A stretch of 64,000 nt of DNA from an uncultured Clostridia bacterium (lineage in GTDB: Bacteria; Bacillota; Clostridia; TANB77; CAG-508): NCBI GenBank assembly GCA_934130435.1, contig CAKOYB010000001.1:1664-65663 (forward strand), written 5' to 3'. This document shows positions 9,768-37,964 of the stretch, one piece after another. Position numbers and translations under genes: made by a program. The notes beneath the pieces are model-generated. The model had not been told where the DNA came from, searched no databases, and saw nothing but the letters and a program-made list of their open reading frames with translations. The stretch's first letter is position 1, and each line of letters begins with the position of its first letter.

Positions 9768-9828
9768 GACTTAGTTTACAATATATGGTATTATACTTTT
9801 ATAAAATTTTGTCGAATTTTGTATTGTC
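9768..9828 (+). promoter_or_regulatory. abrB sigma-A-type promoter with downstream Spo0A (0A) boxes
   Basis: TTGACT(9768-9773), 17 nt spacer, TATTAT(9791-9796). Then TGTCGAA at 9810-9816 and TGTCATA at about 9822-9828, downstream of the promoter as in B. subtilis abrB. Confidence 0.45.
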
Positions 9829-9857: not shown

Positions 9858-10103
9858 ATGAAATCAACAGGAATTGTAAGAAGAGTGGATGAATTGGGTA
9901 GAGTGGTAATCCCTATCGAATTAAGAAATAAATTTGATATTCAGGTAAAAGACCCTATAGAAATATATGTCCAAGAAAATACGATTGTTTTAAAAAAATA
10001 TGAACCAAATTGTATTTTTTGTGGTAATTCTAAAAACTTAATATCTTATAACGACAAATTAATTTGTAAAAAGTGTGCTGAAAAGATCCGCCAAGAATTA
10101 TAA
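9858..10103 (+). CDS. abrB: Transition-state regulator AbrB (SpoVT/AbrB swapped-hairpin domain)
   Basis: 81 aa starting MKSTGIVRRVDELGRVVIPIELR. Conserved synteny with rsmI and the yabB-like methyltransferase. Confidence 0.8.
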   Translation: MKSTGIVRRVDELGRVVIPIELRNKFDIQVKDPIEIYVQENTIVLKKYEPNCIFCGNSKNLISYNDKLICKKCAEKIRQEL

Positions 10104-17700: not shown

Positions 17701-17982
17701 ATATATTAAAAATATATTTTCTCCTTTCTAATTTTTTAATTATTTTATCATATTTTTTTAAAAAAGTATAGACAATATAAAAAATTTATTGTATTATGGT
17801 AAAAAATGTAAAAGGTGGTGATGTGTATTGATGTATTATTAGTTTTATTTTTTATCTTTTTTATTTTAAATGTTTCTATTTGTTTTTATTCAATTTATTT
17901 ATTTTTTGATATAAAAATTTTCCACAATTTGCAAGGTTCAAAATTAAATATTAAGAAAAATTCTTTATTTTAGGAGTAGTCT

Positions 17983-19710
17983 ATGTTTGTTAGTACTTTT
18001 AAGAGAAGGCTTATTTTTGTTTGTCTTTTTATGTTTTTAATCTTTTTCTTATATCTTTATTTTTTTTATTCAATTTTTTTGTCTGATAGTATAATTATTT
18101 TCTTTGCTATTCATCCATTTAATATTTGTAAAGAATACCCTAATGAATGGTTTATTTTTAAGAAATTCTTTATTATCACGGCTTTTTTCTCTAACTTAAT
18201 TATTTCAAATGTTTTATATTCAAATATTTTTAATAAGTCTTCTCAAACAAGTTATAACAATTATTCTCCATCTAATTTATCAGATTTATCATTGTATCTT
18301 GGAAATAACACTTTAAATGAACCTATATATATTCCCTCTTCTGGATTATATCAAAATATTCTTGTTACTGGAACAATAGGAACTGGCAAGACCAGCTCTG
18401 CTCTTTATCCTTTCACCCAGCAATTAATTTCATATAAATGTAATTCTTCGACTGAAAAAATTGGAATTCTTATATTGGATGTAAAGGGAAACTACTTTAA
18501 ACAAGTAAAAAAATATTGTTATGATTACAACAGAATTAATGATTTAATTATTATTGATTTAAATAATTCTACTTTTTATAATCCTCTGGATAAACCATAT
18601 TTGAAAGCATCAGTTTTAGCTAATAGATTAAAAACAATTCTTTGTTTATTTTCAAAAAACAATTCTGAATCATATTGGTTAGATAAAGCAGAGCAGGTCC
18701 TTGCTGAGTGCATTAAACTATGTAGACTTTATAATAATAACTATGTAACTTTTTTAGAAATTCATAATTTAATTACAATACCTAATTATTATTCTGATAA
18801 AGTTAAACAGCTAAGAGAACTTTTTATATCTGGAGCTTTTTCAGAAAAAGACTGTTTTAGTCTATTATCTTCCTTAAATTTTTTTGAAAAGGAATTTTCT
18901 CAATTAGATCCCCGAACATTATCTATATTAAAATCAGAAATCACTCTAATTACTAGTTGTTTTGTTTCTGATTTTGAAATAAAAAATATTTTTTGCCCAT
19001 CAAAAGAAAAAATAAATTTTCATGGATTCTCTGACTTAATAAAAAAAGGCAAAATTGTAGTTTTAAATATGAATATCTCAGAATATAAAAATTTGTCAAA
19101 AATAATAGCTGCATATTTAAAACTCGATTTTCAGTCAGAAATCTTGTCTCAACTATCTTATGGCTCAGCTAAACGAACTACAGCTTTTATAAGCGATGAG
19201 TATCAAGAGTATGTTACAGAAACTGATGCAGATTTTTTTTCTCAAAGTAGAGAAGCAAAATGTATTAACATTGTTTCTACTCAAAGCTATACTTCACTTC
19301 TTAATACTCTAAATAACAAATATGCTGTTCAAACTATTATTCAAAATCTTGTAAATAAATTATGGTTTAGAACAGATGATCTTTTTACAATTGAAGAGGC
19401 TCAAAAACAAATTGGAAAAACAGATAAACTTAAATATTCTAAAACAATTTCTGAAAACTCAAAAGAAACAAATTATAGTTTTATTGCGAAATCGTTTACT
19501 TCTGTAGATTCAAATATTTCAGAGAGCATAAATAGTTATTATAACTTTGACTACATTTATGATACTAATTTTTTTACTCAAAATTTAGAGACATTCTCAT
19601 GTCTCGGTTTTATTTCAAATGGTTCTTATATCTGCCCTCCTCAAAAAATTTCTTTAATTCCTTATTTTAAAAAAAATCTTAATTCAAATGGAGGTTACAA
19701 TGAAAAATAA
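17983..19710 (+). CDS. Type IV secretion coupling-protein-like ATPase (VirD4/TraG/TraD family)
   Basis: 575 aa. Two N-terminal TM helices, Walker A VTGTIGTGKTS, then ILILDVKGNY (the ilDpKGe motif of T4CPs). Size typical of Firmicutes T4CPs. Confidence 0.55.
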   Translation: MFVSTFKRRLIFVCLFMFLIFFLYLYFFYSIFLSDSIIIFFAIHPFNICKEYPNEWFIFKKFFIITAFFSNLIISNVLYSNIFNKSSQTSYNNYSPSNLSDLSLYLGNNTLNEPIYIPSSGLYQNILVTGTIGTGKTSSALYPFTQQLISYKCNSSTEKIGILILDVKGNYFKQVKKYCYDYNRINDLIIIDLNNSTFYNPLDKPYLKASVLANRLKTILCLFSKNNSESYWLDKAEQVLAECIKLCRLYNNNYVTFLEIHNLITIPNYYSDKVKQLRELFISGAFSEKDCFSLLSSLNFFEKEFSQLDPRTLSILKSEITLITSCFVSDFEIKNIFCPSKEKINFHGFSDLIKKGKIVVLNMNISEYKNLSKIIAAYLKLDFQSEILSQLSYGSAKRTTAFISDEYQEYVTETDADFFSQSREAKCINIVSTQSYTSLLNTLNNKYAVQTIIQNLVNKLWFRTDDLFTIEEAQKQIGKTDKLKYSKTISENSKETNYSFIAKSFTSVDSNISESINSYYNFDYIYDTNFFTQNLETFSCLGFISNGSYICPPQKISLIPYFKKNLNSNGGYNEK

Positions 19711-20023
19711 ATTAAATTTTATTTTTTTATTTTCTATTTTGTTTTTATTTTTATTCTCGCCTTTTTGTAATGCTGCATATTATCCCGATTTAGTTTCCAA
19801 ATTATTTAAAGCTTTTGAAAAGATAGAAAGTTGGTTTTTAAAGCTTTCTACTCCTGCAGCAGCTGTTGCTATATGTACTGGCGTTTTTATGAAAAAATTA
19901 AGCTTTGGAGATGAAGAAAAAATCAGAACTGGAAAAAAAATAATTCGAGGCTCAATTTTTTCATATGCTTTTATTTTATTAACAAATTTAATTCTTTCTG
20001 CTATCCAAGCCCTTTTAAAATAG
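19700..20023 (+). CDS. VirB2/TrbC-like pilin-like small membrane protein
   Basis: Signal peptide ending ...FCNA. Then hydrophobic helix, a charged loop KKLSFGDEEKIRTGKK, and a second hydrophobic helix: VirB2-like topology. Start at ATG 19700 after GGAGG; it overlaps the end of the T4CP-like gene. Confidence 0.45.
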   Translation: MKNKLNFIFLFSILFLFLFSPFCNAAYYPDLVSKLFKAFEKIESWFLKLSTPAAAVAICTGVFMKKLSFGDEEKIRTGKKIIRGSIFSYAFILLTNLILSAIQALLK

Positions 20024-20044
20024 TTCTAAAAGGAGTATTTTGTA

Positions 20045-20908
20045 TTGAATAATTCGACCACAAATTTAATTATTAATTCAATTAACACTATGCTTGAAAA
20101 AATCTTTTCCTCTGTTGATAATAATCTATACTCTGTATTAGATTATTTTGTGTTTATTGATACAGATATATTAAACGATAAATATCTTAATAAAATATTA
20201 GGTTCTAATACTTCTGGAATCCTCTTAATTTGTAATTCTTTGATTTTTGGAATATTATTATTTTTTTCAATTAAATATTTTTTCTCTCATCTTGGTATAA
20301 CAAACTCAGACCACCCAGTACAATTTATATTTAAACTAGTTGTTTTTTCAATACTAATGAATTTTTCTTTTTTTATTTGTAAAGAAATTATATATATTGT
20401 ATCTCTCATTTCTTCATCAATACGACAGATTGGTGAACGATTATTTTCATCTTCTATATGTTTTTCGAAATTAATTGAAAATCTAAATGTTATTATTTCT
20501 ACTAATACTTCTATTGATATATTTTCTTTAGATGGTTTAATAAAAAGCTTTTTATCTTTTGGTCTTTTAAGTCTTGCAATAACTTATTCTGTAAGATACG
20601 TTCTAATAAAAGTTTTTATTTTAATTTCCCCCTTTGCTTTTATTTGTTTAGTTAACACCTCTACTTCTATTTTTTTCAAGTCATGGATAAAATCCTTTCT
20701 TTCTTTATTATTAGAGCAGGTTTTTATTGCTATAGTTTTAACTTTTATTTTTTCTTTAAATTTTTCATCTTCACAACTCACTTCAAAATTTATTCTAGTT
20801 GGATCAATTCTTGTTTTGTCAAAGGCTAATCATTTCGTTCGAGAACTACTAGGAGGAATTGGAACAGATATTGGGTTAAATTTTTCAAGTATAAAAAAAA
20901 CATTTTAG
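20045..20908 (+). CDS. VirB6/TrbL-like polytopic membrane protein
   Basis: 287 aa with about 6 TM helices. TTG start with AGGAG 9 nt upstream. Position and topology fit VirB6-like; sequence similarity not verifiable here. Confidence 0.4.
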   Translation: MNNSTTNLIINSINTMLEKIFSSVDNNLYSVLDYFVFIDTDILNDKYLNKILGSNTSGILLICNSLIFGILLFFSIKYFFSHLGITNSDHPVQFIFKLVVFSILMNFSFFICKEIIYIVSLISSSIRQIGERLFSSSICFSKLIENLNVIISTNTSIDIFSLDGLIKSFLSFGLLSLAITYSVRYVLIKVFILISPFAFICLVNTSTSIFFKSWIKSFLSLLLEQVFIAIVLTFIFSLNFSSSQLTSKFILVGSILVLSKANHFVRELLGGIGTDIGLNFSSIKKTF

Positions 20909-20920
20909 GTAGGTGATTTT

Positions 20921-21205
20921 TTGAAATTTATTTTTCCTCAAAACTACAATTTTAATAATAAATTTTTGGGTATTATGGATTACTCAACACTAATATTAAA
21001 TATTATTTTTTATCTTTTTATTTTTTGTATTTCAAATTTATTATTTAAAAATATTAATTTAAAAATATTTTTTTGTATTTCTTTTTCTCTTCCTTTATTA
21101 ATACTTAGCTTAACTGGTATAAATAATGAAAATATTTTTCTTGTTTTTATATATTTAATATCTTATATTAAAAGACCTAAAATATATTTATTTAAAAAAT
21201 TTTAA
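20921..21205 (+). CDS. Small 2-TM membrane protein (possible VirB3-like)
   Basis: 94 aa. TTG start with AGGTGA RBS. In G+ T4SS the VirB3-like gene usually sits directly 5' of virB4. Confidence 0.3.
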   Translation: MKFIFPQNYNFNNKFLGIMDYSTLILNIIFYLFIFCISNLLFKNINLKIFFCISFSLPLLILSLTGINNENIFLVFIYLISYIKRPKIYLFKKF

Positions 21206-21278: not shown

Positions 21279-22241
21279 ATGAAGTTAGAACAAAATGACA
21301 TGCCATTGCTTTTTTCTAGCACCGAAATCCCTGATATATTTTTTACCGAATACTTTTCTGGGGCATCAGGTGATTTTATAAAAGTGTATTTATATATATT
21401 ATTTCTTTCAAAATATAATAAGGATATAAAATTAAATGATTTATCAAAGAAAATCGCAATTACTCTTCCAGTTATTCAGGAAGCTCTTTCTTTCTGGGAA
21501 CAACAAGGAATTATTACTAAAAAGGGTTCTGGTTATATTGTAAATAATCTAAATGAAATTGAACTACATAAGCTATATTCACCAAAACTTTCAATTTCAG
21601 ATAAAACAACTGCAAAAACTGAAAAAGAAAAACTTCGTTCAAAAGCAATAGAATCTATTAATACTATGTTTTTTCAAGGAATTATGTCACCTTCTTGGTA
21701 TAGTGATATAGATTTATGGTTTAAGAAATATGAATTTGATGAAGAAGTAATGATTGCATTATTCAGATATTGTTTTGAAAAATCTGCTCTTCACAGAAAT
21801 TATGTAAAAGCTGTTGCAGATGCGTGGCACTTAAACAATATAAAAACTTTTTCTGAGTTAGATTCCTACTATGAAAAACAGGAAAAAATTAATAAAATAA
21901 AAAAGAGTATATCTAAGAAATTAGGTCTAACAAGAAAACTAACTCAATACGAAGAAGCTTACATAGAAAAATGGATCTCTGAATATAAATATAATCTTGA
22001 TGTAATAGAAATAGCCTTGAAAAAAACAACATCAAAATCTAATCCTAATTTTGATTACTTAGATAAAATGATTTCAGATTGGTATGACAAAAAACTTTTA
22101 AACTCAGATGATGTAAAAAAATATTTATTAGAATTTAAAAATAAATCTAAGCAAATTAAGGAATTAGAAAAAAAGACTAATTATCAAAATTATGATCAAA
22201 GAAATATTACAAACTTTGATGATTTATATGCAAACAATTAG
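21279..22241 (+). CDS. DnaD-domain replication initiation/membrane attachment protein
   Basis: 320 aa with a DnaD-like winged-helix N-terminus and C-terminal DDBH2 region (WYSDIDLWF..., YIEKWISEY, DYLDKMISDWYDKKL). Confidence 0.7.
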   Translation: MKLEQNDMPLLFSSTEIPDIFFTEYFSGASGDFIKVYLYILFLSKYNKDIKLNDLSKKIAITLPVIQEALSFWEQQGIITKKGSGYIVNNLNEIELHKLYSPKLSISDKTTAKTEKEKLRSKAIESINTMFFQGIMSPSWYSDIDLWFKKYEFDEEVMIALFRYCFEKSALHRNYVKAVADAWHLNNIKTFSELDSYYEKQEKINKIKKSISKKLGLTRKLTQYEEAYIEKWISEYKYNLDVIEIALKKTTSKSNPNFDYLDKMISDWYDKKLLNSDDVKKYLLEFKNKSKQIKELEKKTNYQNYDQRNITNFDDLYANN

Positions 22242-22261: not shown

Positions 22262-23251
22262 TTGAATAATTCTACTTTAAAAGCATTGTTAAAAGAATAT
22301 GAACAATCTCGTTTAGAAAAAGAATTATTATTAGAAAAAAAATTAAATGATTTTTATGAAAATAATCCTGATGTAAGTTCTATTATTGAAAAAATAAATA
22401 GAACTTCAATTGAAATCTCTAAAAATATTCTTTTAAACAAAGATCCCAAAAAACAAAAGGAATTAGAATTAATTTTAGAAAAATATAAGAAGGAAAAACA
22501 ACTGTTATTAAAAAAGTTAAATATATCTGATGATTTTTTTCTTCCTGATTATTCTTGTAAATTATGTAATGATACTGGATATCTAGTTAACAATAGCACT
22601 ATTATGTGTAGTTGTTTAAAACAAAAATTATTAAATATCGAGTATAATAGATCCAACATTTCTAGTTTGGAAAAAGAAAATTTTAACACGTTTGATTTTA
22701 GTGTTTTCTCTAATAATGCAGATGAAAAAAAATATAATTCAAATATTTCTCCTAGAGAAAATATCAAAAAAATAAGAAAAATTTGTGAAGACTTTATACA
22801 AAACTTTAATAATCCCAAAGAAAAAAATTTACTTTTTACAGGCAATACTGGACTTGGAAAAACATTTTTAACAAACTGCATTGCAAATGAATTACTAAAA
22901 TCCGGTAAAACAGTATTATATCAAACTTCCCCTGTAATGCTTGACTCTATACTTGATTATAGATTTGGAAAAAATAATAATTTTAATTATTCCGATTTAT
23001 TATCTGTCGATTTGTTAATAATAGATGATTTAGGAACTGAAAGTTTAAATAATATGAAATTTTCAGAGTTATTTAATATTCTAAATACTAGGCTTTTAAA
23101 TCAAAATCATCATATAACAAAAACTATAATTTCAACAAATTTAAGCTTAAATAATTTATTCAAGACATATGATGAAAGAATTTTTTCAAGACTCGCTGGA
23201 TATTATAATATTTGCAAGTTTTTTGGTGATGATATACGTTTAAAAAAATAA
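22262..23251 (+). CDS. Helicase loader, DnaC/DnaI (IstB-like AAA+) family
   Basis: Zn-binding cysteines (CKLCNDTGY...CSC), Walker A FTGNTGLGKTFL, Walker B LLIIDDLGTE. Confidence 0.75.
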   Translation: MNNSTLKALLKEYEQSRLEKELLLEKKLNDFYENNPDVSSIIEKINRTSIEISKNILLNKDPKKQKELELILEKYKKEKQLLLKKLNISDDFFLPDYSCKLCNDTGYLVNNSTIMCSCLKQKLLNIEYNRSNISSLEKENFNTFDFSVFSNNADEKKYNSNISPRENIKKIRKICEDFIQNFNNPKEKNLLFTGNTGLGKTFLTNCIANELLKSGKTVLYQTSPVMLDSILDYRFGKNNNFNYSDLLSVDLLIIDDLGTESLNNMKFSELFNILNTRLLNQNHHITKTIISTNLSLNNLFKTYDERIFSRLAGYYNICKFFGDDIRLKK

Positions 23252-23266
23252 TACTTTTTAATAAAA

Positions 23267-23296
23267 TAAAAGAGAGGTCAATCCTCTCTTTTATTT
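23267..23296. terminator. Bidirectional terminator between dnaC-like and convergent gyrA
   Basis: AAAGAGAGG-TCAAT-CCTCTCTTT hairpin with flanking T runs. Confidence 0.5.
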
Positions 23297-23308
23297 TGTT
23301 CTTTTTTG

Positions 23309-25744
23309 CTATTCTTCAATATCTGGTGTAATTGTTTCTATACTTACAACTTTACAATTATCACTTGTTCTCATTAATGTAACTCCTTGCGTTGATCTTC
23401 CTAAAATACTTATATCTTTAACCTTCAACCTAATTATTGTTCCTGTATTTGTTATAAGCATAACATCTTCTTCGTCTGTTGCTATTCTTATTCCAACAAT
23501 TTTTCCGGTTTTAGGTGTAATTTTATATGTAATAACTCCTTTACCACCTCTTGTTTGAACTCTGTATTCATCTAATTCTGTTCTTTTTCCAAATCCATTT
23601 TCTGTTATAGCAAGAAGAGTAGCTTTGCTTCCTGAAATTATAGGTTCCATTCCAATGACTTCATCTCCATCATTTATCTTCATTCCTATAACTCCTTGTC
23701 CTGTTCTTCCTATTGGTCTTACGTCCTTTTCTGCAAATGTAATACATAATCCCTCTCTTGTTACTAGCACAACGTTATCTTCTCCATCTGTCATTCTTAC
23801 ATCTATCAACTCATCTCCATTTTTTAGAGTTATTGCTTGAAGTCCAGATTTTCTTGCTGAGTTATATTCTAATAATGCTGTCTTTTTTATCATTCCTGTT
23901 TTCGTAGCCATTAAAAGATATTTTCCTTCTGCAAAATTTGAAATCGGTATAACAGCTGAAATTTTTTCATCTCTATCTAATTGTAATAAATTAACTATGG
24001 CTGTTCCTTTGGCTGTCCTTCCAGCCTCAGGTATTTCATATCCTCTTAATCTGTAAAGTTTTCCTTTATTAGTAAAGAATAAAATTGTATCATGTGTAGA
24101 AGCAGTAAATATTTGCTTTACAAAGTCTTCTTCTCTTGTTGCAATTCCTGTTATTCCTTTTCCTCCTCTTCTTTGACTCTTATATGTGTCTATTGGCATT
24201 CTCTTAACATATCCAAAATGAGTTAATGCAATAACAGCTTGTTCTTCTTTTATTAGGTCTTCTATTTCAAAATCTCCTTCTGCTGCAACTATTTTTGTTT
24301 TTCTTTCGTCTCCAAATTTTTCTTTTACTTCAATTAGTTCTTTTTTTATAATATCAAAAACTAATTTTTCACTTCCTAGAACATCTTTTAAATATGCAAT
24401 TAACTTCATTAATTCTTCATATTCGTTTTCAATTTTTTCTCTTTGTAAGCCTGATAATGTTTTTAATCTCATATCAAGAATTGATTGGGCCTGAATTTCA
24501 GATAGTCCAAATCTTTGCATTAATCTTTCTTTTGCATCATCATATGAGTTCTTTATTATTTCAATAACTTCATCTATATTATCTAGAGCTATTTTTAATC
24601 CTTCTAAGATATGTGCCCTTGCTTCTGCCTTATCTAGGTCAAATTTTGTTCTTCTTAAAACAACTTCTTTTCTATGTTCAATATAATATTCCATACATTG
24701 TTTTAATGTTAATATTCTAGGTTCACCATTTACTAATGCAAGCATTATAATTCCAAATGTATCTTGCATTTGAGTATGTTTAAATAGTAAATTTAGTACA
24801 ACTTGTGCATTTGCATCTCTTTTTAGTTCAATTACTATTCTAACTTTCTCTTTTCTATCAGATTCATCTCTAATTTCTGAAATTCCTTCTATTTTCTTTT
24901 CTTTTGCTAGTTCAGAAATATTTTGAATTAATTTTGCTTTATTAACTTGGTATGGTAAAGATGAAACTATAATACGTTGTTTGTTTCCAGACATTTCTTC
25001 TATTTCTGTTTCAGCTCTTAATGTTATTTTTCCTTTTCCAGTTGTATACGCTTGTTTTATTCCTTCTCTTCCTAATATTAGTGCTCCTGTTGGGAAATCT
25101 GGTCCCTTTACAATTTTCATTAAATCTTCATCACTAATATCATCTTCATCGATAATTTTTATTATTCCATCTATAACCTCTGTTAAGTTATGTGGTGGAA
25201 TATTAGTTGCCATTCCAACTGCTATTCCAGATGAACCATTTATAAGAAGTGCCGGTATTTGAGCTGGTAAAACAGTTGGTTCTTGTAGTCTATCATCATA
25301 GTTTGGCATAAAATTTACGGTATTTTTTTCAATATCAGCCAACATGTAGTTTGATATTTTAGCCATTCTTGCTTCTGTATACCTCATTGCAGCAGCACCA
25401 TCACCATCTATTGATCCAAAATTTCCATGTCCATCAATTAGCATATATCTAAGAGAAAAGTCTTGTGCCATTCTAACCATTGCATCATATACAGCCGCAT
25501 CGCCGTGTGGATGATATCTTCCTAAAACTGAACCTACTGTATTTGCACATTTCCTGTATGGCTTATCTGATGTTATTCCATCTTCATGCATTGCATATAA
25601 TATTCTTCTATGTACTGGTTTTAATCCGTCTCTAACATCTGGTAATGCACGTGAAACTATAACACTCATAGCATAATCTATATATGCAGTCTTCATTTCT
25701 TTTTCAATGTCTCTTTCAATTATTGTTTCTCCTGGTCTGTCCAT
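23309..25744 (-). CDS. gyrA: DNA gyrase subunit A
   Basis: 811 aa; active-site region AMRYTEARM, GyrA box QRRGGKG. Full length. Confidence 0.95.
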   Translation of the reverse strand: MDRPGETIIERDIEKEMKTAYIDYAMSVIVSRALPDVRDGLKPVHRRILYAMHEDGITSDKPYRKCANTVGSVLGRYHPHGDAAVYDAMVRMAQDFSLRYMLIDGHGNFGSIDGDGAAAMRYTEARMAKISNYMLADIEKNTVNFMPNYDDRLQEPTVLPAQIPALLINGSSGIAVGMATNIPPHNLTEVIDGIIKIIDEDDISDEDLMKIVKGPDFPTGALILGREGIKQAYTTGKGKITLRAETEIEEMSGNKQRIIVSSLPYQVNKAKLIQNISELAKEKKIEGISEIRDESDRKEKVRIVIELKRDANAQVVLNLLFKHTQMQDTFGIIMLALVNGEPRILTLKQCMEYYIEHRKEVVLRRTKFDLDKAEARAHILEGLKIALDNIDEVIEIIKNSYDDAKERLMQRFGLSEIQAQSILDMRLKTLSGLQREKIENEYEELMKLIAYLKDVLGSEKLVFDIIKKELIEVKEKFGDERKTKIVAAEGDFEIEDLIKEEQAVIALTHFGYVKRMPIDTYKSQRRGGKGITGIATREEDFVKQIFTASTHDTILFFTNKGKLYRLRGYEIPEAGRTAKGTAIVNLLQLDRDEKISAVIPISNFAEGKYLLMATKTGMIKKTALLEYNSARKSGLQAITLKNGDELIDVRMTDGEDNVVLVTREGLCITFAEKDVRPIGRTGQGVIGMKINDGDEVIGMEPIISGSKATLLAITENGFGKRTELDEYRVQTRGGKGVITYKITPKTGKIVGIRIATDEEDVMLITNTGTIIRLKVKDISILGRSTQGVTLMRTSDNCKVVSIETITPDIEE

Positions 25745-25883
25745 TATAAAATAACCTCTTTTCTTTGCATTTTAAAGTACTTAAAATGCTTGTTTCCTTA
25801 CGGATTTATTATACTAAACCTTCCAAAAATATGCAAGAAAAAAAATACAAAAAAGCCAAAAAACCTTCTAATTTGCGACAAAC

Positions 25884-25914
25884 TTGACATAAACTTTTTT
25901 TTATGAGGTATAAT
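25884..25914 (+). promoter_or_regulatory. Putative sigma-A promoter (TTGACA-19-TATAAT) divergent from gyrA
   Basis: TTGACA 25884-25889, TATAAT 25909-25914. The 19-nt spacer is suboptimal. Confidence 0.3.
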
Positions 25915-25958
25915 AATTATAGATAATTTTAAAAATTATTTTATTTAAGGAGGCAATT

Positions 25959-26189
25959 GATGTCTTAGAACAGATAAATAAACAGAATCGTGAAAAAAAT
26001 ATAGACCAAACTTTTACATGTAACTATCAAGGTTGCATTGATATTGATAAACATCCATTGTTTTTTAAAACTGCTGAAAGAACAGAATATACAAAAGCCG
26101 ATGGAAGTTCTGCTGAAACTCTGGGTAATAATTCAATTATCTTTGATCCAAGCAATATCTTAAATGATCCAGACGAAATTGGAAGATAA
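25959..26189 (+). pseudogene. Start-less 76-codon ORF after a strong RBS and a 2-codon mini-ORF (probable gene remnant or leader)
   Basis: AAGGAGG(25947-25953) then TTG ATG TCT TAG. An overlapping +2 frame stays open for 76 codons with no ATG/GTG/TTG near its 5' end. Confidence 0.3.
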
Positions 26190-26201
26190 AATTAAATAAA
26201 A

Positions 26202-26239
26202 AAGCCGCTAACATTATTTCATTAAAGCGGTTTTTTTTT
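26202..26239 (+). terminator. Terminator-like hairpin with a T9 tract
   Basis: AAAGCCGC...GCGGTTTTTTTTT. Confidence 0.45.
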
Positions 26240-26316
26240 ATTATTTAATTAGTTAAAATTTTATAAGAACTTCTTTTTTCCTTCTTAATTTCATACAGTT
26301 TCATTTTTATAGTTTT

Positions 26317-27042
26317 TTATACCAAAATTTGTGCTAATTGTTTTTCTTCTTCTGATAAATTATAATTAATTCCTTTATTTTTTATTAATTTATGTATGTT
26401 TTCTATTTGTTTTGCTTCTTTAATTGTACTTTCTAATGGTATTATATCTTCTATTTCTGTTTTTATTTTTTTATATTCTCTTTCCATACCTTCCATGTCT
26501 TTTGCTGAATAACAGTTTTTCCAGTTGGAAATATATTTAGTTGTTTTTTCAATTGAATTAACTTGTCCCAAAAATTTATCTTCTATATTACTTTCAATTG
26601 TATTTAATATTGCATTCTTTCCTTTTTTTATTAATGTTGCTGTTCCCTTTTTCATTAGTTTGTTTTTGGCCGCATTGTTTACAACATTATTAATAACATC
26701 TGATACATTATCTATTATTCCACCTTTTTTAATTGCTGTTTGTACTTGGGATAAATTATCAAATTTTCCAGTAACAATTCCTAGTGCACTTTTTCCTAAA
26801 TCAATAGCTGAATTTATTGCAACATTTATCCCTTCTTTAAGCCCACTTGTTAACATAGTATTTTTTATGTTGATTATTTGGTCGTCAATTAATTTTGGAA
26901 AAATTGCCCTCAATCCAATATCTATGCCGGTATTAATTATTTTTCCAAATGTTGTTTCTAAAAAATTCTTTTGACTCTTCTCTGTTACTAATTCATTAGT
27001 TAATGTTCTAATTTCATTATTATTCTCTAACTTATTTTGCAT
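26317..27042 (-). CDS. Hypothetical soluble helical protein (241 aa), last gene of the gyrB-gyrA island
   Basis: No TM helix or signal peptide. Repetitive amphipathic N/K/I-rich helices. No recognisable motif. Confidence 0.5.
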   Translation of the reverse strand: MQNKLENNNEIRTLTNELVTEKSQKNFLETTFGKIINTGIDIGLRAIFPKLIDDQIINIKNTMLTSGLKEGINVAINSAIDLGKSALGIVTGKFDNLSQVQTAIKKGGIIDNVSDVINNVVNNAAKNKLMKKGTATLIKKGKNAILNTIESNIEDKFLGQVNSIEKTTKYISNWKNCYSAKDMEGMEREYKKIKTEIEDIIPLESTIKEAKQIENIHKLIKNKGINYNLSEEEKQLAQILV

Positions 27043-27098
27043 TATTATTATTTTGTAAAATACTTTTCTTTAAAATATTTTACATCCTCCTTTATTTT

Positions 27099-28109
27099 TT
27101 ATAGTAATATTTCATTTTTTATAATACTAATAAATTTTCTTTTTTCTTTTTTATTTAAAAAATTTATATTAACTTTATTATCTATTATTAAATTTATATT
27201 TGAAATAAAATCAATTTTTTCAATTTTACTTCTTAAATTTAAGGTTTTTTCTAGAATATTTTTACTTAATGCATTTTTATTATATTTGTTTAATATTATT
27301 TTTATATTATTTTTATTTTTTATTTTATTTATTATTTTATTTAATTCTAATAAATTATTTTCTATTATAAATATTTCTATATTCGCTTTTTTGAAAAAAT
27401 TTTCTTTATTAAAATCAAATAATAAATAATCATACTTTTCTTTTAAAGTTTTTATTTTATTATTTATATTTATTTTTTCTTCTTTACATTCTTTAATGTT
27501 TATTATACTTAAATTTTTATTTATTAAATTAAAAGATTTAATTCCTTTATTTGGTAAATAAATTTTTGTTATTGAATTACTCCATTCATCTCCATCTATT
27601 ATTAAAACTTTCTTACCAAATTTTTTAATCAATAATTCAGTAATTATAATTGAAAAAAATGTTTTTCCACTCCCTCTATTTCCAAATATTCTAATTGTTT
27701 TATTTTTTTGTTTTTTATTTAATATTTTAATTTTTTCATTAATTGTTTTTGAATTTGTTTTTTTTATTTTTATATAGGTTATATTATTTTGATTTATTAT
27801 TTTTTGATTTTTTTCATTAATATTTAAAATAAAAATAATTATTTTTATTTTATTATTTATTGTTCTTATTTTTTTTATTAGATTAATTAAACTAATATTT
27901 CCTATTAAACTTTCATTTAAAAATATTAAATCAACATTTTTGTCTTTTTCTAATATTTCAATTATTCCTTCTTTATATTGAATGTCTGAATTAATTATTT
28001 TTATTTTATTAATTTTTTTTATTTCATTTAATATTTTTGTATTATTAACAGCTGTTATTGTATTTATATTTTTTTCTTTATATAATTGTTCTTCTTTCAA
28101 ATTCATCAC
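27099..28109 (-). CDS. ParA/MinD/CpaE-like P-loop ATPase with N-terminal receiver-like domain
   Basis: 336 aa. N-terminal half resembles a pseudo-receiver (DLIFLNESL). C-terminal half has IFGNRGSGKTFFS...KKVLIIDGDEW, the ParA/MinD/TadZ arrangement. Overlaps the upstream ORF by 32 nt. Confidence 0.5.
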   Translation of the reverse strand: MMNLKEEQLYKEKNINTITAVNNTKILNEIKKINKIKIINSDIQYKEGIIEILEKDKNVDLIFLNESLIGNISLINLIKKIRTINNKIKIIIFILNINEKNQKIINQNNITYIKIKKTNSKTINEKIKILNKKQKNKTIRIFGNRGSGKTFFSIIITELLIKKFGKKVLIIDGDEWSNSITKIYLPNKGIKSFNLINKNLSIINIKECKEEKININNKIKTLKEKYDYLLFDFNKENFFKKANIEIFIIENNLLELNKIINKIKNKNNIKIILNKYNKNALSKNILEKTLNLRSKIEKIDFISNINLIIDNKVNINFLNKKEKRKFISIIKNEILL

Positions 28110-29907
28110 TTTCTATATTTACTAAAATATGATTTTCTCCAACAAACATTAAACATTCACCTCTTTTAAGAGTTTTTATTTCGATTTTTTCTTTTTCTGA
28201 AAGTGAAGAAAATTTACTTAATATTTTTATGTTATCCTCTTCTAATGAAAAAAAAGTTTTAATTTCCGAATTATTTAATATACTTTTTCCATAAACTCCA
28301 TTTTCCAGGCTAAAAATATCTGAAATATCTTGCGTAATAGCAACCGCACTTCCTCCATATTTTCTAATTGTTTTAAAAATCTTATAAATAAAACTTGCAA
28401 CTATTTTATTTGATGTTATTCCAATTAGTCTCCACACTTCGTCTAAATATATAGCTTTTTTTATCTTTCTATTATTTTTAATTTTATCCCAAAATAATTC
28501 TGTAAAGATATACATTCCATATTTTAAATTTTCTTCTCCTAAGTCATAAACATCTGCAACAATTAAACTATTATTTAATTCTACATTTGTATAATTATTA
28601 AAAAATTTTAAGGAACCTTTTATAAATGGTTTTAATTTTATTGCAAATATTTTTGTTTTATTATCATTATTTAAAACATTATATAAATCACTTAGAATTG
28701 GCATATCTTTTCTAGTTTTAAATATATATTTATTTTTTTCTTTTTTATATAAAGATTTATCTTCGAAATTTATATTTTTTAATTCATAACATTTAATAAT
28801 TTTTTCTTCTAAAATTCCTCTTTCCTCTTCATTTATTTCTCCAAAAATCAAATTAAAAAATCCAATTAATTTTAATATTTTTGTTTCTAAATATCCTTTT
28901 CCTTGTTCTTCTAAGCTTTCTTTTCTAATGTCTAAAATATTTATATATGTTTCAGAATTTGGTCCTATTTTTATTAATGTTCCATTTAAATTGGTACAAA
29001 GTTTTGTATATTCTCTTTCTGGATCTATAATAAATTGTTCTATTCCATTTAGTCTACTTCTTAATATTAATAATTTTGTAAAAAAAGATTTTCCAGCTCC
29101 ACTTGTTCCAAAAATACATATATTAGAGTTTTTATATTTTTTATCATTATATCTATCAATAAAAACAAGTGAATTATTATATATATTATTTCCTATATAT
29201 ATTCCTTCATCATCAAATATAGCAGATGATATAAATGGATATGTTGCACACATTCCAGATGTAAGCACATTTCTTTTTGCTGCATTTTTTATTTCTATGC
29301 TATTTTCTAGAAATGGCATTGTCGCTAAAAAAACTTGTTCTTGTCTAAAATATGCTTTTTTTGAATATAAACCTGAACTTTGCAAAATATTTTCTATTTT
29401 ATTTAAAATAAAATTTATTTCTTCCTTTTTTTGAGTAAATATATCTATATAAATATATAAATAAAATAATTCTTGATTATTTATTTGAATTTCTTTCCTC
29501 AAATATTTTGCATCACTATACGTAAATGCTGCAATTTCAATGTCTTGTCTATTTTCTGATGTTTCTTTTATTTGAGCACCAACATTTCCAATGTGATATG
29601 TTAAATCTTTTATTGCTTTTTGTGTATTTGCTTTCTCATAAAAAATTGAAATATTCATATTAATATTACTGTCTATCAATTTTTTTAATATAATATCTTC
29701 TTGTTCTCTGTTATAGTTATATATAATTAATCCAGAATAATACATTTCGTCTAATTCTAAATATTTTGGATTTTCTAAATTTAAATAGTTTGGGCAAATT
29801 TTATCTTTAAAACTAATTGCCCCTTCATATATATCAATTTTATTTTTAGGTTCTTTTTTTATTTTTAAAATTATTTTCTTTATTATTTTATTAATTATTT
29901 TCTTCAT
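28078..29907 (-). CDS. VirB4/ConE/TrsE-like T4SS ATPase, C-terminal 609-aa part
   Basis: Walker A CIFGTSGAGKSFF, IIDPEREY, Walker B AIYLDEVWRL, VAITQDISD. Upstream region has the NPKYLELDEMYYSGLIIYNY pattern of G+ VirB4 proteins. Confidence 0.65.
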   Translation of the reverse strand: MKKIINKIIKKIILKIKKEPKNKIDIYEGAISFKDKICPNYLNLENPKYLELDEMYYSGLIIYNYNREQEDIILKKLIDSNINMNISIFYEKANTQKAIKDLTYHIGNVGAQIKETSENRQDIEIAAFTYSDAKYLRKEIQINNQELFYLYIYIDIFTQKKEEINFILNKIENILQSSGLYSKKAYFRQEQVFLATMPFLENSIEIKNAAKRNVLTSGMCATYPFISSAIFDDEGIYIGNNIYNNSLVFIDRYNDKKYKNSNICIFGTSGAGKSFFTKLLILRSRLNGIEQFIIDPEREYTKLCTNLNGTLIKIGPNSETYINILDIRKESLEEQGKGYLETKILKLIGFFNLIFGEINEEERGILEEKIIKCYELKNINFEDKSLYKKEKNKYIFKTRKDMPILSDLYNVLNNDNKTKIFAIKLKPFIKGSLKFFNNYTNVELNNSLIVADVYDLGEENLKYGMYIFTELFWDKIKNNRKIKKAIYLDEVWRLIGITSNKIVASFIYKIFKTIRKYGGSAVAITQDISDIFSLENGVYGKSILNNSEIKTFFSLEEDNIKILSKFSSLSEKEKIEIKTLKRGECLMFVGENHILVNIESDEFERRTII

Positions 29908-29918
29908 ATTTATTCCTT

Positions 29919-30476
29919 TTAAAAAATTTTTCTATTAATAAATGAATTATATATTTTTTTAATTTCATCTATTTTTTGAATTTTTATAATAGAGTTTCCA
30001 CATCTGCTTAATGAATCTTTTATTTTTAAGAATTTTTCATTTAAGTCTTCTCTTATTTCATTAATTTTTTTTTCATCCTCTATCTCTGATTTTATTAATA
30101 AATAAAATTTTTTTAATGTGGATTTTTTTTCTATATTTTTTTGATTAATAAAATTAATATAATTATCTATCAGGTTTACTATATTTAAATTATTTAAACC
30201 CATTTCCTTTTCTTTTTGAAAATTTACATTTTTAATTATTTTGTTTAAATCTTCTTTATTGCTTTGAATTATAATTTGTGTTTCTCTACTACAATTTTTT
30301 AAAAAGATTTTATATGAGTTTAATATTGCTTGTTTTTCAAATTCTGTTTTTAAATTATAATTAATTGGATTTACTTTTATTATTATAAAAAATATATTAT
30401 TTTTTACTTTAATAATTCCATCACAAAAAAACTGCTCTATTGGCAACCATTCTTGAATACTATTATTTTTTTTCAT
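29919..30476 (-). CDS. VirB4/ConE-like N-terminal fragment (185 aa)
   Basis: SIQEWLPIEQFFCDGIIKVKNN...VNPINYNLKTEFEKQAILNSYKIFLKN matches the conserved N-terminus of G+ VirB4 homologues (Tn916 Orf16, ConE, TcpF). The stop lies 11 nt before the ATG of the C-part, in a different frame. RBS AGGAGA upstream. Confidence 0.55.
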   Translation of the reverse strand: MKKNNSIQEWLPIEQFFCDGIIKVKNNIFFIIIKVNPINYNLKTEFEKQAILNSYKIFLKNCSRETQIIIQSNKEDLNKIIKNVNFQKEKEMGLNNLNIVNLIDNYINFINQKNIEKKSTLKKFYLLIKSEIEDEKKINEIREDLNEKFLKIKDSLSRCGNSIIKIQKIDEIKKIYNSFINRKIF

Positions 30477-30565
30477 TTTTCTCCTTGGAAATTAATTGAT
30501 TAAACTTTTTTGATAAAATTAATTAAAATAAGAATTAAATTAAATATTGATCTAATAATAAATTT

Positions 30566-30593
30566 ATTATATATAAAATATCATTTTTGTCAA
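30566..30593 (-). promoter_or_regulatory. Putative sigma-A promoter for the island operon
   Basis: On the minus strand: TTGACA (complement of 30588-30593), 16 nt spacer, TATAAT (complement of 30566-30571). About 90 nt upstream of the 30476 ATG. Confidence 0.4.
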
Positions 30594-31042
30594 CAAAAAT
30601 AATATTTCAATTTTCGACAAAAAATTTTTTTTAATTTTTTATTTTTTTTGTATATATTTTTTTAGTTTGTGCATAATATTAGTATAAGGTTAATACTAGT
30701 TAAACAAAGAAAAGTATGAGATTAAGGTTTTGTATTTTTCGAACCAAGATTTATTATGGTGGTGTATTTTTATCATAATAAGTCGGAAGTACGAGTATAA
30801 TATGTGTTTGTATGCTGTTGTATATGGCTAAATTATATGTATTATATTCAAGTTAAGAGTATACTTATATTTTAGTCTATTATTTCTAGTCCCTCTGGGA
30901 TGACTATAGTTGGCTGAGGTGTATTTATATTCGAGTGACTGATTATTAAAGGTGGAAAATTGCTTAGTTGTGCAGCAATGTACATTAGGTGAGTATTTAT
31001 CTTTAATGGTTTTAACTACGATTAATATTAGCCTTATAGATA

Positions 31043-31069
31043 ATAGCCCGAGATCCTGTCTCGGGCTAT
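31043..31069 (-). terminator. GC-rich hairpin immediately downstream of gyrB
   Basis: AGCCCGAGA-TCCTG-TCTCGGGCT. An unusually GC-rich perfect 9-bp stem in an AT-rich genome; the trailing U tract is weak. Confidence 0.45.
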
Positions 31070-31072
31070 TAA

Positions 31073-33013
<1,941 letters not shown>

Positions 33014-35577: not shown

Positions 35578-36927
35578 TTATTCTTTATCTAATAAAATTT
35601 TTTTAACACTTTCCACAATTAATTTTGTATTGTTAGTATTATTTGATTTAGAATTAGATCTAATTTCAGATTCTATTTTTGAGCAAGCATGCATTACAGT
35701 TGTGTGATCTCTTTTTCCAAAGGAATCACCAATCTTGGTAAAAGGCATATTAGCCAAATCCCTACATAGAAACATTGCTATTTGTCTTGGATATGCAATA
35801 TCATTTGATCTTTTTGAGCTTTTTATATCTCTTTGCGAAATATTAAAATATTTTGAAACAACTTCTTGAATATATTCAGCAGAAATAACCTTTTCTTTTT
35901 TTGAAATAACTTCATTTATACATTGTTCAGCAAGTTCTATAGAAATTGGACTATGAGTTAAAGAAGCTTTTGCAAGAATTTTATTTAATGTTCCCTCTAA
36001 TTCTCTTATATTAGAATCTACCTTTATTGCAATATTTGAAAGAATATTATCATCAATAATTATATTTTCAATTTGTACTTTTTTTCTTAATATTGCTAAA
36101 CGAGTTTCATAGTCTGCATTTGAAATGTCTGCCATTAATCCCCATTCGAAACGAGATTTTAGTCTATCTTCTAAATTATCAATATCTTTTGGAGGTTTGT
36201 CACTAGACATTATAATTTGACATCCATTTTCATGAAGAGTATTAAAGGTATGGAAAAATTCTTCTTGTACTTGTTTTTTTCCAGCAATAAATTGAATGTC
36301 ATCAATTAATAAAACATCAATATTTCTATATTTGTTTCTAAATTGTTCATTTGTATTATCTTTTATACAATTAATAAATTCATTTGTAAATTTTTCGGAA
36401 GTTACATATAAAACTTTTTTGTCTGAAAAAGTTTTAAGTATTTCGTTTCCTATAGCCTGCATTAAGTGCGTTTTTCCTAAACCAACTCCACCATATAAAA
36501 AAAGTGGATTATATGATGTAGCAGGAGCTTCGGCAACAGCTAATGCAGCAGCTTGAGCAAATCTATTGTTATTTCCAACAACATATGTATCAAAAGTATA
36601 ATTTGGGTTTAGTCCACTAGAAGAATTATTATTTTTTTCAGAAAAAGTTGGTGTAACTGTATTTTTTTCATCATTTTCATCTGGACATACTGTTGCTATT
36701 TCATACTTTTTGTTTGTTAGATAATTAAAAGTATTAACTATTAAATCATGATATTTGTTTTCAATAACATCTTTTTGAAATGGAGATGAAAGTCTAAAAA
36801 TAATTGTTGTATCTGTTATTTCTTCTATTTCAATAGGATTAATCCAAGTTATAAAAGAGATATTGCTCATTTCATCTTTTAAAAGCATTTTTGCATTGTT
36901 TAGAAGTTCAATTTCGTCCCTTTTCAT
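35578..36927 (-). CDS. dnaA: Chromosomal replication initiator DnaA
   Basis: 449 aa; AAA+ Walker A GGVGLGKTHL and C-terminal DnaA-box-binding domain. Confidence 0.95.
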   Translation of the reverse strand: MKRDEIELLNNAKMLLKDEMSNISFITWINPIEIEEITDTTIIFRLSSPFQKDVIENKYHDLIVNTFNYLTNKKYEIATVCPDENDEKNTVTPTFSEKNNNSSSGLNPNYTFDTYVVGNNNRFAQAAALAVAEAPATSYNPLFLYGGVGLGKTHLMQAIGNEILKTFSDKKVLYVTSEKFTNEFINCIKDNTNEQFRNKYRNIDVLLIDDIQFIAGKKQVQEEFFHTFNTLHENGCQIIMSSDKPPKDIDNLEDRLKSRFEWGLMADISNADYETRLAILRKKVQIENIIIDDNILSNIAIKVDSNIRELEGTLNKILAKASLTHSPISIELAEQCINEVISKKEKVISAEYIQEVVSKYFNISQRDIKSSKRSNDIAYPRQIAMFLCRDLANMPFTKIGDSFGKRDHTTVMHACSKIESEIRSNSKSNNTNNTKLIVESVKKILLDKE

Positions 36928-37765: not shown

Positions 37766-37964
37766 AATAATTTTATTTTATAAAAAAAATATTTCGACAT
37801 TTCTAAAAGCACATGGAATAGAATGTAGGTATTATCCAACATGTTCGGAATACAGTATACAAGCGATAGAAAAGTATGGAGTAATAAAAGGCGTTTTTAT
37901 TTCGATGATTAGATTTCTTAAATGTAATCCATTTTCTAAAGGTGGATATGATCCTTTAAAATAG
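37743..37964 (+). CDS. yidD: Membrane protein insertion efficiency factor YidD
   Basis: [18 protein letters not shown]...[15 protein letters not shown] matches the YidD signature. Overlaps the rnpA 3' end. Confidence 0.7.

Follow-up and report, generated by a model that had tools for sequence, protein, structure and literature searches.

Chromosomal type IV secretion systems (T4SSs), mostly without a relaxase, have been described in the Patescibacteria, where they combine an MPF-FATA-derived VirB4 with TrsD, PrgI/VirB3, VirB6 and VirB2-like proteins (Quinonero-Coronel et al. 2025, PMC12102498). These systems often lie near dnaA and dnaN, and in the class ABY1 comF (competence) as well as recG and radA (recombination) are commonly found within them (PMC12102498). 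Here we analyse a comparable gene set around gyrB and gyrA in an uncultured Clostridia bacterium (GTDB lineage TANB77; CAG-508), on a 64,000-nt stretch of contig CAKOYB010000001.1 that is referred to below as the window. Full-text literature searches that combined TANB77 with type IV secretion, and CAG-508 with conjugation or VirB4, yielded no account of this system; a report of a 'conserved pilin' in TANB77 concerns a Tad-like pilus cluster, which is a different locus (PMC11680825).

A preliminary description of the window, made from its letters alone, placed 5.3 kb between gyrB and gyrA, as the gene coordinates confirm (25744 to 31073), and read this insert (hereafter the island) as a chromosomally fixed remnant or module of a conjugation apparatus. 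On balance, we favour the view that the island belongs to a vertically inherited, co-opted, relaxase-less T4SS of conjugation ancestry, which is fixed in a large low-GC lineage of gut Clostridia.

T4SS-like genes on both sides of gyrA

The genes dnaA (35578-36927), dnaN, recF and gyrB (31073-33004), four open reading frames (ORFs) of the island and gyrA (23309-25744) form a single minus-strand series (Table 1). The four ORFs, of 185, 609, 336 and 241 aa, are real, as had been proposed, and profile searches supported the VirB4-like (CD1110 VirB4, P-loop_TraG, DUF87) and ParA-like (CbiA, AAA_31) assignments made earlier. The 609-aa protein scores 312.6 bits against the NCBIfam CD1110-family VirB4-like conjugal transfer ATPase (profile positions 180-732), just under the curated cutoff of 325 bits, and matches the solved C-terminal domain of VirB4 (PDB 4AG5) with an E-value of 2.4e-38. 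Its Walker A (GTSGAGKS) and Walker B (YLDE) motifs are intact, and both are invariant across an 18-sequence alignment. A total of 5621 relatives were found, and the top 120 of them share at least 68% identity with it and span 558-624 aa.

The neighbouring 185-aa protein aligns with positions 10-199 of the 201-position NCBIfam TrsD/TraD profile (E-value 1.3e-8) with a score of 34.9 bits, far under the 200-bit cutoff, and it also matches positions 2-158 of the CD1110 VirB4 profile; its relatives carry the precomputed domain PF26593 TraC-like. Because this protein matches both TrsD and the N-terminal positions of VirB4, the two genes represent a TrsD+TrsE-type arrangement and not a broken gene. 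The preliminary description had recorded a VirB4-like ATPase in two ORFs; the ATPase stands, and the two ORFs reflect no disruption, given that the same split is kept in relatives. A programmed frameshift joining the two ORFs was considered and rejected, because in relatives they occupy different relative frames, or the same frame with a stop between them. In a distant relative, the uncultured element L211, the TrsD-like and VirB4 sequences are fused in one protein of 849 aa.

The island accounts for just one half of the apparatus. The remaining genes are found across gyrA, upstream of dnaB/dnaI, where they lie on the plus strand (17983-21205) and converge on gyrA. The first of these encodes a coupling protein that matches Pfam TrwB_AAD_bind at 36.1 bits (cutoff 20.5) together with TraG-D_C. 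From end to end, it shares 35% identity with its counterpart in L211, an element that bears a relaxase. In the family of the pilin, PF18895 T4SS_pilin is found in 10 of 10 members and TrbC/VirB2 in 3 of 10, with the copy in the window scoring 25.2 bits, just under the cutoff of 26.6. The 287-aa family gave weak TrbL/VirB6 matches in 6 of 11 members (the best E-value being only 0.0023), and has homologues in a sister cluster (L087) and in L211. The 94-aa protein has no Pfam match; its homologues in L087 and L211 stand immediately upstream of TrsD/VirB4, whereas in the window it is set apart from VirB4. Ahead of the coupling-protein gene, a hydrophobic open frame of ~29 aa with a GGTGGTG ribosome-binding-like site (17822-17911, plus strand) could encode a leader peptide or be open by chance.

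The island encodes two further proteins. The family of the 336-aa protein carries CbiA in 14 of 14 members and AAA_31 in 12 of 14, and its profile matches in the PDB are PF-32, MinD and Soj. In an AlphaFold 2 model (mean predicted local distance difference test, pLDDT, 82.9), an N-terminal (beta-alpha)5 domain precedes the MinD/ParA ATPase. Foldseek matched this model to MinD, ParA and HypB and, lower down, to the response regulator PleD; TadZ was absent from the top 50 fold matches. The position after beta3 that would accept a phosphate is Asn or Ser, not Asp, which makes the N-domain a pseudo-receiver, as in TadZ/CpaE. The earlier assignment as a receiver plus a ParA/CpaE-like ATPase therefore holds for the ATPase and for the (beta-alpha)5 fold, and the receiver is one without its Asp. 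The gene follows VirB4 in sister clusters too. It is the least conserved of the set (27-58% identity) and is lost or fragmented in some loci, being absent in those of the L004 type. It is also the compositional extreme of the window, at 11.9% GC, with 57% Asn+Lys+Ile and several short tandem repeats. The 241-aa protein belongs to a family of 1603 relatives, none of which has a Pfam domain or a name; the protein itself has no Pfam or NCBIfam match, its mean column identity is 74%, and its AlphaFold 2 model (pLDDT only 52.8) was too poor to use. It has no homologue in the sister T4SS clusters.

No relaxase (MOB) or MobC domain is encoded in the window or appears in the gene tables of the related 20-kb loci examined. 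L211 differs in this respect, being a bona fide conjugative element that encodes a relaxase, MobC and an M23 hydrolase. L211 carries homologues of all the T4SS-like proteins except the 241-aa one, among them the 94-aa homologue, TrsD+VirB4, the pilin, the coupling protein and the 287-aa protein. A VirB8-like protein and a peptidoglycan hydrolase (VirB1/CwlT/TcpG type) are likewise missing from the window and from the related loci.

One alternative, which we regard as unlikely but the most credible of the competing accounts, is a working chromosomal conjugation system that mobilises chromosomal or other DNA with a relaxase and an origin of transfer (oriT) located elsewhere, or with an unrecognised relaxase. 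It would explain why a coupling protein with intact Walker motifs has been kept, it agrees with the conjugative nature of the nearest relatives of known context, and a ParA-like ATPase accompanies the system; the DNA-secreting T4SS of the gonococcus needs ParA/ParB homologues. It is opposed by the lack of relaxase, MobC and hydrolase over the stretches just given and by the identity matrices of VirB4 and GyrB (below), which fit co-divergence, though transfer of other DNA would be compatible with them.

A somewhat less credible alternative is a DNA-uptake machine, that is, a T4SS reversed to import as in Helicobacter ComB or archaeal Ced. Import is consistent with a T4SS that has a pilin but no relaxase, the presumed Spo0A-linked expression in stationary phase resembles competence timing, and the frequency of comF, recG and radA in ABY1 T4SS loci (PMC12102498) points the same way. 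However, the window holds a ComEA-like gene (SLBB + HHH_3; 57073-57741, minus strand), which indicates that an ordinary competence DNA receptor is present and so points to the ordinary pathway. The VirD4-like coupling protein, moreover, has been kept here, and ComB-type systems are not known to have one.

Distribution, descent and composition

VirB4 was found between gyrB and gyrA in 54 of 54 related loci that hold both gyrase genes, at gyrB-gyrA spacings of 3.8-13.6 kb. Relatives thus carry the same genes at the same site, so that the arrangement is no local oddity. This is one half of the outcome that the preliminary description had named as counting against its reading; the other half does not apply, in that the operon formed by these genes is not a known or annotated one. 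A tblastn survey of 86 loci returned the invariant order dnaA-dnaN-recF-gyrB-TrsD-VirB4-(ParA)-241aa-gyrA on one strand and dnaI-dnaB-94aa-287aa-pilin-coupling protein on the other, and at least 522 stretches were confirmed in a collection with one genome per species. Among the 80 loci listed, all are metagenome-assembled genomes (MAGs) of uncultured Clostridia, Clostridiaceae or 'Clostridium sp.', one of them Clostridium sp. CAG:567, except for two labelled 'uncultured bacterium'. Because the same order recurs in dozens of independent assemblies, the split gyrB-gyrA arrangement is not an assembly artefact.

Across 41 species-level genomes, the pairwise identity matrices of VirB4 and GyrB correlate with r=0.82, compared with 0.81 for GyrB and GyrA, and the Mantel test for VirB4 and GyrB gave 0/999. 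VirB4 identities in these genomes range from 67 to 98%, with a median of 75%. At 50% clustering the VirB4 family has a single representative, with a few sisters at 43-50% identity, and the remaining relatives, at ~27-40%, are full-length conjugative VirB4s. Among plasmids, the best VirB4 match reaches 32.7% identity; of the 1141 plasmids with a match, 756 are conjugative.

More distant loci were also inspected. In L208 and L209 (GC 22-24%; GyrB 68% and VirB4 50% identical), gyrB is followed by genes for an acetyltransferase, an M20 peptidase, a TrsD-like protein, VirB4 and a ParA-like protein. The presence of TrsD-VirB4-ParA a few genes downstream of gyrB in these two loci implies that the linkage predates the surveyed lineage. 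In L087 (GC 40%; VirB4 50%), the genes for a VirB6-like protein, one further protein, the 94-aa homologue, a TraC-like protein, VirB4 and a ParA-like protein are contiguous, and a T2SSE-type (VirB11/PilB-like) ATPase is encoded ~3 kb (four genes) further on. L087 may show the ancestral, unsplit gene order.

The GC content of the island genes is 12-25%, as compared with 31% for gyrA and gyrB, so the insert is indeed more AT-rich than its flanks, as was first noted. It is not set apart from other weakly constrained genes, however: the whole window has a GC content of 25.8%, recF is at 19.6%, and the GC content at third codon positions (GC3) of the island genes falls within, or at the low end of, the range of the genome. 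Composition therefore gives no sign of foreign origin, and low GC as a mark of horizontal transfer was rejected after this comparison of per-gene GC and GC3.

Taken together, the synteny, the co-divergence of VirB4 with GyrB and the GC data argue strongly against a recent insertion, a mobile island or a decaying remnant. That these are non-functional genes persisting from a decaying integrative and conjugative element (ICE), as was first suggested, is very unlikely. Decay would fit the relaxase and hydrolase missing from the window, the dispersal of the genes in two blocks, and the divergent, AT-rich and in places lost or fragmented ParA-like gene. On the other hand, the ORFs are intact in the loci examined, VirB4 keeps the identities given above with invariant catalytic motifs, the promoter and its Spo0A box (below) are conserved, and so is the 241-aa protein. 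What endures of the 'fixed remnant or module' is thus a T4SS-derived module that is chromosomally fixed.

Still more improbable is an ICE or genomic island that is mobile at present and has the gyrB-gyrA spacer as its recurrent target. The AT-richness of the island and the variable extra DNA between gyrB and the island and inside it, with gaps of up to 6.8 kb, could be read in this way. However, no integrase or transposase module was found in the window (terminal direct repeats were not looked for), and every locus shows one and the same gene order, which extends to the half beyond gyrA with its interleaved dnaB/dnaI. Repeated targeting is also at odds with the co-divergence with gyrase and with the deeper lineage (GyrB 68%) that likewise has the TraC-N-like and VirB4 genes downstream of gyrB.

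A predicted structured RNA and the Spo0A-type boxes

The ~600 nt between gyrB and the TrsD-like gene had been treated as a non-coding spacer with the gyrB terminator; they hold a conserved structured RNA gene and a Spo0A box. This interval keeps 65-75% DNA identity in nearly all relatives and has no ORF that explains it. RNAalifold, applied to 20 sequences, gave -101.5 kcal/mol with 125 pairs on the plus strand, as compared with -9.6 kcal/mol on the minus strand, and a minus-strand reading was rejected on this difference. Standard pairs fill 97.7% of cells, against 36-45% with slid partners; compensatory changes occur in 69 pairs, against 19-24 in slid controls; and 0 of 500 shuffles reached any of the observed measures. 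More than 20 invariant G-U pairs fix the RNA strand as plus. The copy in the window folds into the same shape, with a minimum free energy of -137 kcal/mol (z = -10.7). The RNA consists of a closing stem and five long arms whose six junction strands approximate KUY-GAGCNAA-GAKU, so that its predicted architecture is a pseudo-sixfold six-way junction. Judged by covariation and folding, it is a new structured family: Rfam returned no match at gathering thresholds, and a scan of 30350-31200 at E<=10 gave only three chance-level ones (E 3.7-9).

Copies of the RNA were searched for with nhmmer, and the full alignment has more than 180 of them. A TTGnAT-N18-(C/T)ATAAT sequence, with a spacer that is always 18 nt, immediately precedes P1 in 86 of the 145 copies examined, and its columns are conserved in the alignment folded with RNAalifold. 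At the 3' end, the RNA shares its terminator hairpin with gyrB. The GC-rich hairpin that had been reported there is present; it folds as 14 bp, and its stem letters vary among relatives while the pairing is kept (covariation). In 120 further metagenome loci, the only recognised gene at the 3' end of the RNA is gyrB, and on the 5' side the nearest recognised gene is the divergent TrsD-like gene or, in one locus, VirB4. Both neighbours are visible in 69 of these 120 loci, and most of the others end before one of them. Where insertions part the two neighbours, the RNA stays with gyrB. It had no exact-pattern match in viral contigs and no blastn match in PLSDB plasmids or phage genomes, and thus shows no visible association with mobile elements; L208 and L209 yielded no homologue of it. 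In one related locus (L070), a second full-length copy (4014-4435) lies in a 2.4-kb AT-rich, repetitive, non-coding insert between dnaN and recF.

Nine related loci form a subclade without the RNA (L045, L050, L056, L059, L062, L064, L072, L079 and L082), with a gyrB-TrsD spacer of 245-529 nt. This subclade keeps the promoter, the Spo0A box or boxes and all T4SS genes, which shows that the RNA is not required for the secretion genes.

We also weighed the idea that the conserved 400-nt element acts as DNA, as a single-strand origin or promoter, an oriT-like structure or an array of protein-binding sites, and consider it unlikely. The element does adjoin T4SS genes, its six GAGCNAA-type repeats could be binding sites, and single-stranded DNA would form long hairpins too. 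Nevertheless, the more than 20 invariant G-U pairs of the plus strand would be A-C mismatches on the other strand, and the element comes with a terminator and with a conserved promoter whose spacing is fixed at 18 nt. Furthermore, it follows gyrB and not the T4SS genes across insertions, and loci that lack it still keep the T4SS.

As had been noted, a separate sigma-A-type promoter precedes the island genes; it matches the TTGACA-16-TATAAT consensus at 12 of 12 positions and is the sole perfect site of this kind within 17.3-33.2 kb. In the same interval, 125 promoter-like sites were counted, compared with 118 in shuffled sequences, which is no excess. A TTGAC(A/T) hexamer of the -35 type occurs in the island promoter interval of 49 of 49 loci. 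An exact TGTCGAA in the same orientation, the Spo0A-box sequence (0A-box consensus TGNCGAA), was found in 39 of 49 loci in a survey covering the related loci L010-L083, mostly 26 nt and in a few cases 16 nt from TTGAC(A/T), against a background of 0.063 per kb. The box is present in 9 of 9 RNA-less loci, in four of them as the tandem TGTCGAA-N3-TGTCGAA with a 10-bp spacing, and the tandem form recurs in several loci. This spacing fits the site of a Spo0A dimer, as seen in the structure of Spo0A with DNA.

Exact TGTCGAA sequences also occur elsewhere in the window. One (9810-9816, plus strand) lies between a TTGACT-17-TGgTATTAT promoter and the start codon of abrB (9858-10103), the classical position for repression by Spo0A, and suggests a working Spo0A regulon in the organism. 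Another (37793-37799, minus strand) lies in the putative oriC region upstream of dnaA and is possibly a Spo0A site at the origin.

The preliminary description had reasoned that gyrA would need a promoter of its own, and a separate promoter-like site was found upstream of it; the promoter scan did not list this site because its -35 is weak. It had also taken a plus-strand ORF between gyrA and the 241-aa gene for a remnant. This frame has no usable start, no Pfam match and no homologue in 200 related loci, and is better regarded as filler; in relatives, gyrA and the 241-aa gene are only ~100-200 nt apart. On the opposite side of gyrA, dnaB and dnaI lie downstream of the second T4SS half on the same strand, an order kept in all loci that reach that far, and only 73 nt, with no predicted terminator, separate the 94-aa gene from dnaB. 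The recF-gyrB gap is 61 nt in the window, where the relatives L004 and L006 hold an 84-aa RemA-like gene. The remainder of the window is origin-region housekeeping (yidC, jag, mnmE, mnmG, rsmG, soj, spo0J, cell-wall genes, leuS and dinB), and the sporulation-linked spmA/spmB are present as well as abrB.

Table 1. Coordinates of the features in the window (strand as + or -;. where both or none applies)
Feature	Position	Strand	Basis or remark
Type IV coupling protein, VirD4-like, 575 aa	17983-19710	+	Walker A GTIGTGKT, Walker B SDEY
VirB2-like T4SS pilin, 111 aa	19688-20023	+	signal peptide and two hydrophobic helices
VirB6-like polytopic membrane protein, 287 aa	20045-20908	+	weak TrbL/VirB6 matches
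Two-helix membrane protein, VirB3/PrgI position, 94 aa	20921-21205	+	context of homologues
dnaB-like gene, DnaD domains	21279-22241	+	Pfam DnaB_2, E 4e-28
dnaI-like helicase loader	22262-23251	+	NCBIfam PRK06835, 336 bits
Bidirectional terminator	23260-23300	.	promoter/terminator scan
gyrA promoter-like site, TTGCAT-17-TATAAT	25808-25836	-	weak -35 (3/6)
Plus-strand open frame, stop-to-stop	25923-26189	+	no ATG/GTG/TTG start before 26058; window-specific filler
Hairpin terminator after 241-aa gene, CCGCU...AGCGG then U-run	26196-26230	.	read from sequence
Orphan all-helical protein, lineage-specific, 241 aa	26317-27042	-	unnamed family
Pseudo-receiver + ParA/MinD-type ATPase, TadZ/CpaE-like architecture, 336 aa	27099-28109	-	
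VirB4-type ATPase, 609 aa	28078-29907	-	Pfam P-loop_TraG, AAA_10, DUF87
TrsD/TraC-N-like protein (VirB4 N-terminal domain as own gene), 185 aa	29919-30476	-	
Sigma-A-type island promoter, TTGACA-16-TATAAT	30566-30593	-	12/12 match
Spo0A-box sequence TGTCGAA	30613-30619	-	26 nt upstream of island -35
RNA promoter	30648-30677	+	-35 TTGTAT 30648-30653, 18-nt spacer, -10 CATAAT 30672-30677
Structured non-coding RNA, ~390 nt with terminator	30684-31037	+	covariation and folding
RNA helices	P1 30684-30701/31020-31037; H2 30709-30740; H3 30748-30784; H4 30793-30849; H5 30857-30932; H6 30935-31016		
Terminator hairpin common to gyrB (-) and RNA gene (+)	31043-31069	.	GC-rich stem AGCCCGAGA/TCTCGGGCU

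Proposed role and comparison with known systems

If the locus is a co-opted T4SS, as we favour, its two ATPases, presumably hexameric as in known T4SSs, would form an envelope-spanning translocon together with the VirB6- and VirB3-like proteins and the pilin. Such a translocon would move a macromolecule to or from neighbouring cells, either a protein or DNA processed by an enzyme encoded elsewhere, and would not serve the self-transfer of a mobile element. Phosphorylated Spo0A would turn on the gyrB-proximal operon as cells pass into stationary phase or sporulation, acting through tandem 0A boxes just upstream of the sigma-A promoter. The ~390-nt RNA, a separate gene divergent from the island promoter, would be stable and would act in trans as a multivalent protein-binding scaffold. 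It is a speculative further step, and one we think improbable, that the RNA junction docks onto a ring-shaped hexamer (for example VirB4, the coupling-protein ATPase or another hexameric enzyme that acts on nucleic acids and belongs to the replication cluster), so that RNA and Spo0A-controlled T4SS would make up an RNA-assisted device for cell-to-cell transfer or sensing on which the lineage depends. The parallel that such a device might offer to the T4SS genes reported to be essential for epibiotic growth in the Patescibacteria class Saccharimonadia is just as conjectural.

Several points weigh against this interpretation. The window covers 64 kb, and a relaxase, a VirB8-like protein and a hydrolase could be encoded elsewhere in the genome, which keeps conjugation or chromosome mobilisation in contention; furthermore, recruiting relaxase-DNA complexes is normally the task of the coupling protein, which is retained here. 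Among the membrane proteins, the VirB6-like one is weakly assigned, and the assignment of the VirB3-like one reflects position and homology to uncharacterised neighbours. As for regulation, spo0A was not seen in the 64-kb window and the box could bind another factor, and none of the five loci that extend across the region ahead of the coupling-protein half has a 0A box in it. Any link between RNA and T4SS is hypothetical, since nine loci keep the T4SS genes without the RNA. Finally, every functional step, for the machine and for the RNA alike, is one that we infer from analogy.

Should the favoured reading be correct, the locus would represent a second domestication of conjugation machinery, either independent of the Patescibacteria case or ancestral to it, and its hosts would make up a major uncultured group of gut Clostridia at order level; the GTDB order TANB77 has been linked to immunotherapy response. 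The machine sits within the most conserved gene cluster of the chromosome, is apparently tied to the Spo0A developmental switch, and would offer a testable handle on how never-cultured, small-genome bacteria interact with other cells. The RNA, with its strong covariation, fixed address and rare pseudo-sixfold architecture, is a target for metatranscriptomics and cryo-EM. For annotation, the split gyrB-gyrA pair and the 'split VirB4' in these MAGs are genuine and should be taken neither for misassemblies nor for pseudogenes. The interest of the locus comes mainly from the RNA, from order-wide fixation inside the replication gene cluster and from the presumed Spo0A link.

Several known systems resemble single parts of the locus. 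Like OLE, ROOL, GOLLD and raiA, the RNA is a stand-alone, highly structured predicted RNA of several hundred nucleotides with strong covariation, its own promoter and terminator, and hosts among uncultured or anaerobic Firmicutes. Unlike them, it combines an extreme richness in G/U and scarcity of C with numerous G-U pairs and a pseudo-sixfold six-way junction with repeated GAGCNAA linkers, and it has a fixed address convergent with gyrB. The 336-aa protein shares with TadZ/CpaE an Asp-less, receiver-like (beta-alpha)5 domain joined to a MinD/ParA ATPase, whereas its gene neighbours VirB4 and an orphan gene, not CpaF/TadB/TadC, and does so in sister clusters too.

Resemblance to the conjugative T4SSs of Firmicutes is broader. 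VirB4 is 27-33% identical to its counterparts in pSK41/pGO1 (TrsD-TrsE), pCF10 (PrgI-PrgJ) and C. difficile (CD1110), and it matches the NCBIfam CD1110 and TraC models. The likeness further covers the split into TrsD and VirB4, the T4SS_pilin family, the coupling protein and, through weak matches, the VirB6-like protein; L211 has five proteins in common with the system of the window. In contrast to these systems, the locus has no relaxase, MobC, peptidoglycan hydrolase, VirB8-like protein or adhesin and, unlike Firmicutes ICEs and plasmids, it holds a fixed position across hundreds of species and co-diverges with gyrase.

The closest analogue appears to be the relaxase-less, dnaA-proximal T4SS of the Patescibacteria, a likeness drawn from the component list and the proximity to dnaA. 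Both derive from the MPF-FATA conjugation class of monoderms, are chromosomal and origin-proximal, occur in lineages with reduced genomes, and comprise VirB4, a separate TrsD, PrgI/VirB3-like and VirB6-like proteins, a VirB2-like pilin and a coupling protein; the Patescibacteria systems mostly lack a relaxase, and none is encoded in the window. They differ in host, which here, as judged from record titles, is a lineage of Clostridia and has spmA/spmB and abrB, and in arrangement, since the genes stand in two blocks on either side of gyrA, among gyrB, gyrA and dnaB/dnaI, with one pilin gene and no arrays. The pseudo-receiver-ParA ATPase, the orphan 241-aa protein, the Spo0A-box promoter and the neighbouring structured RNA further distinguish the Clostridia locus from its Patescibacteria analogue.

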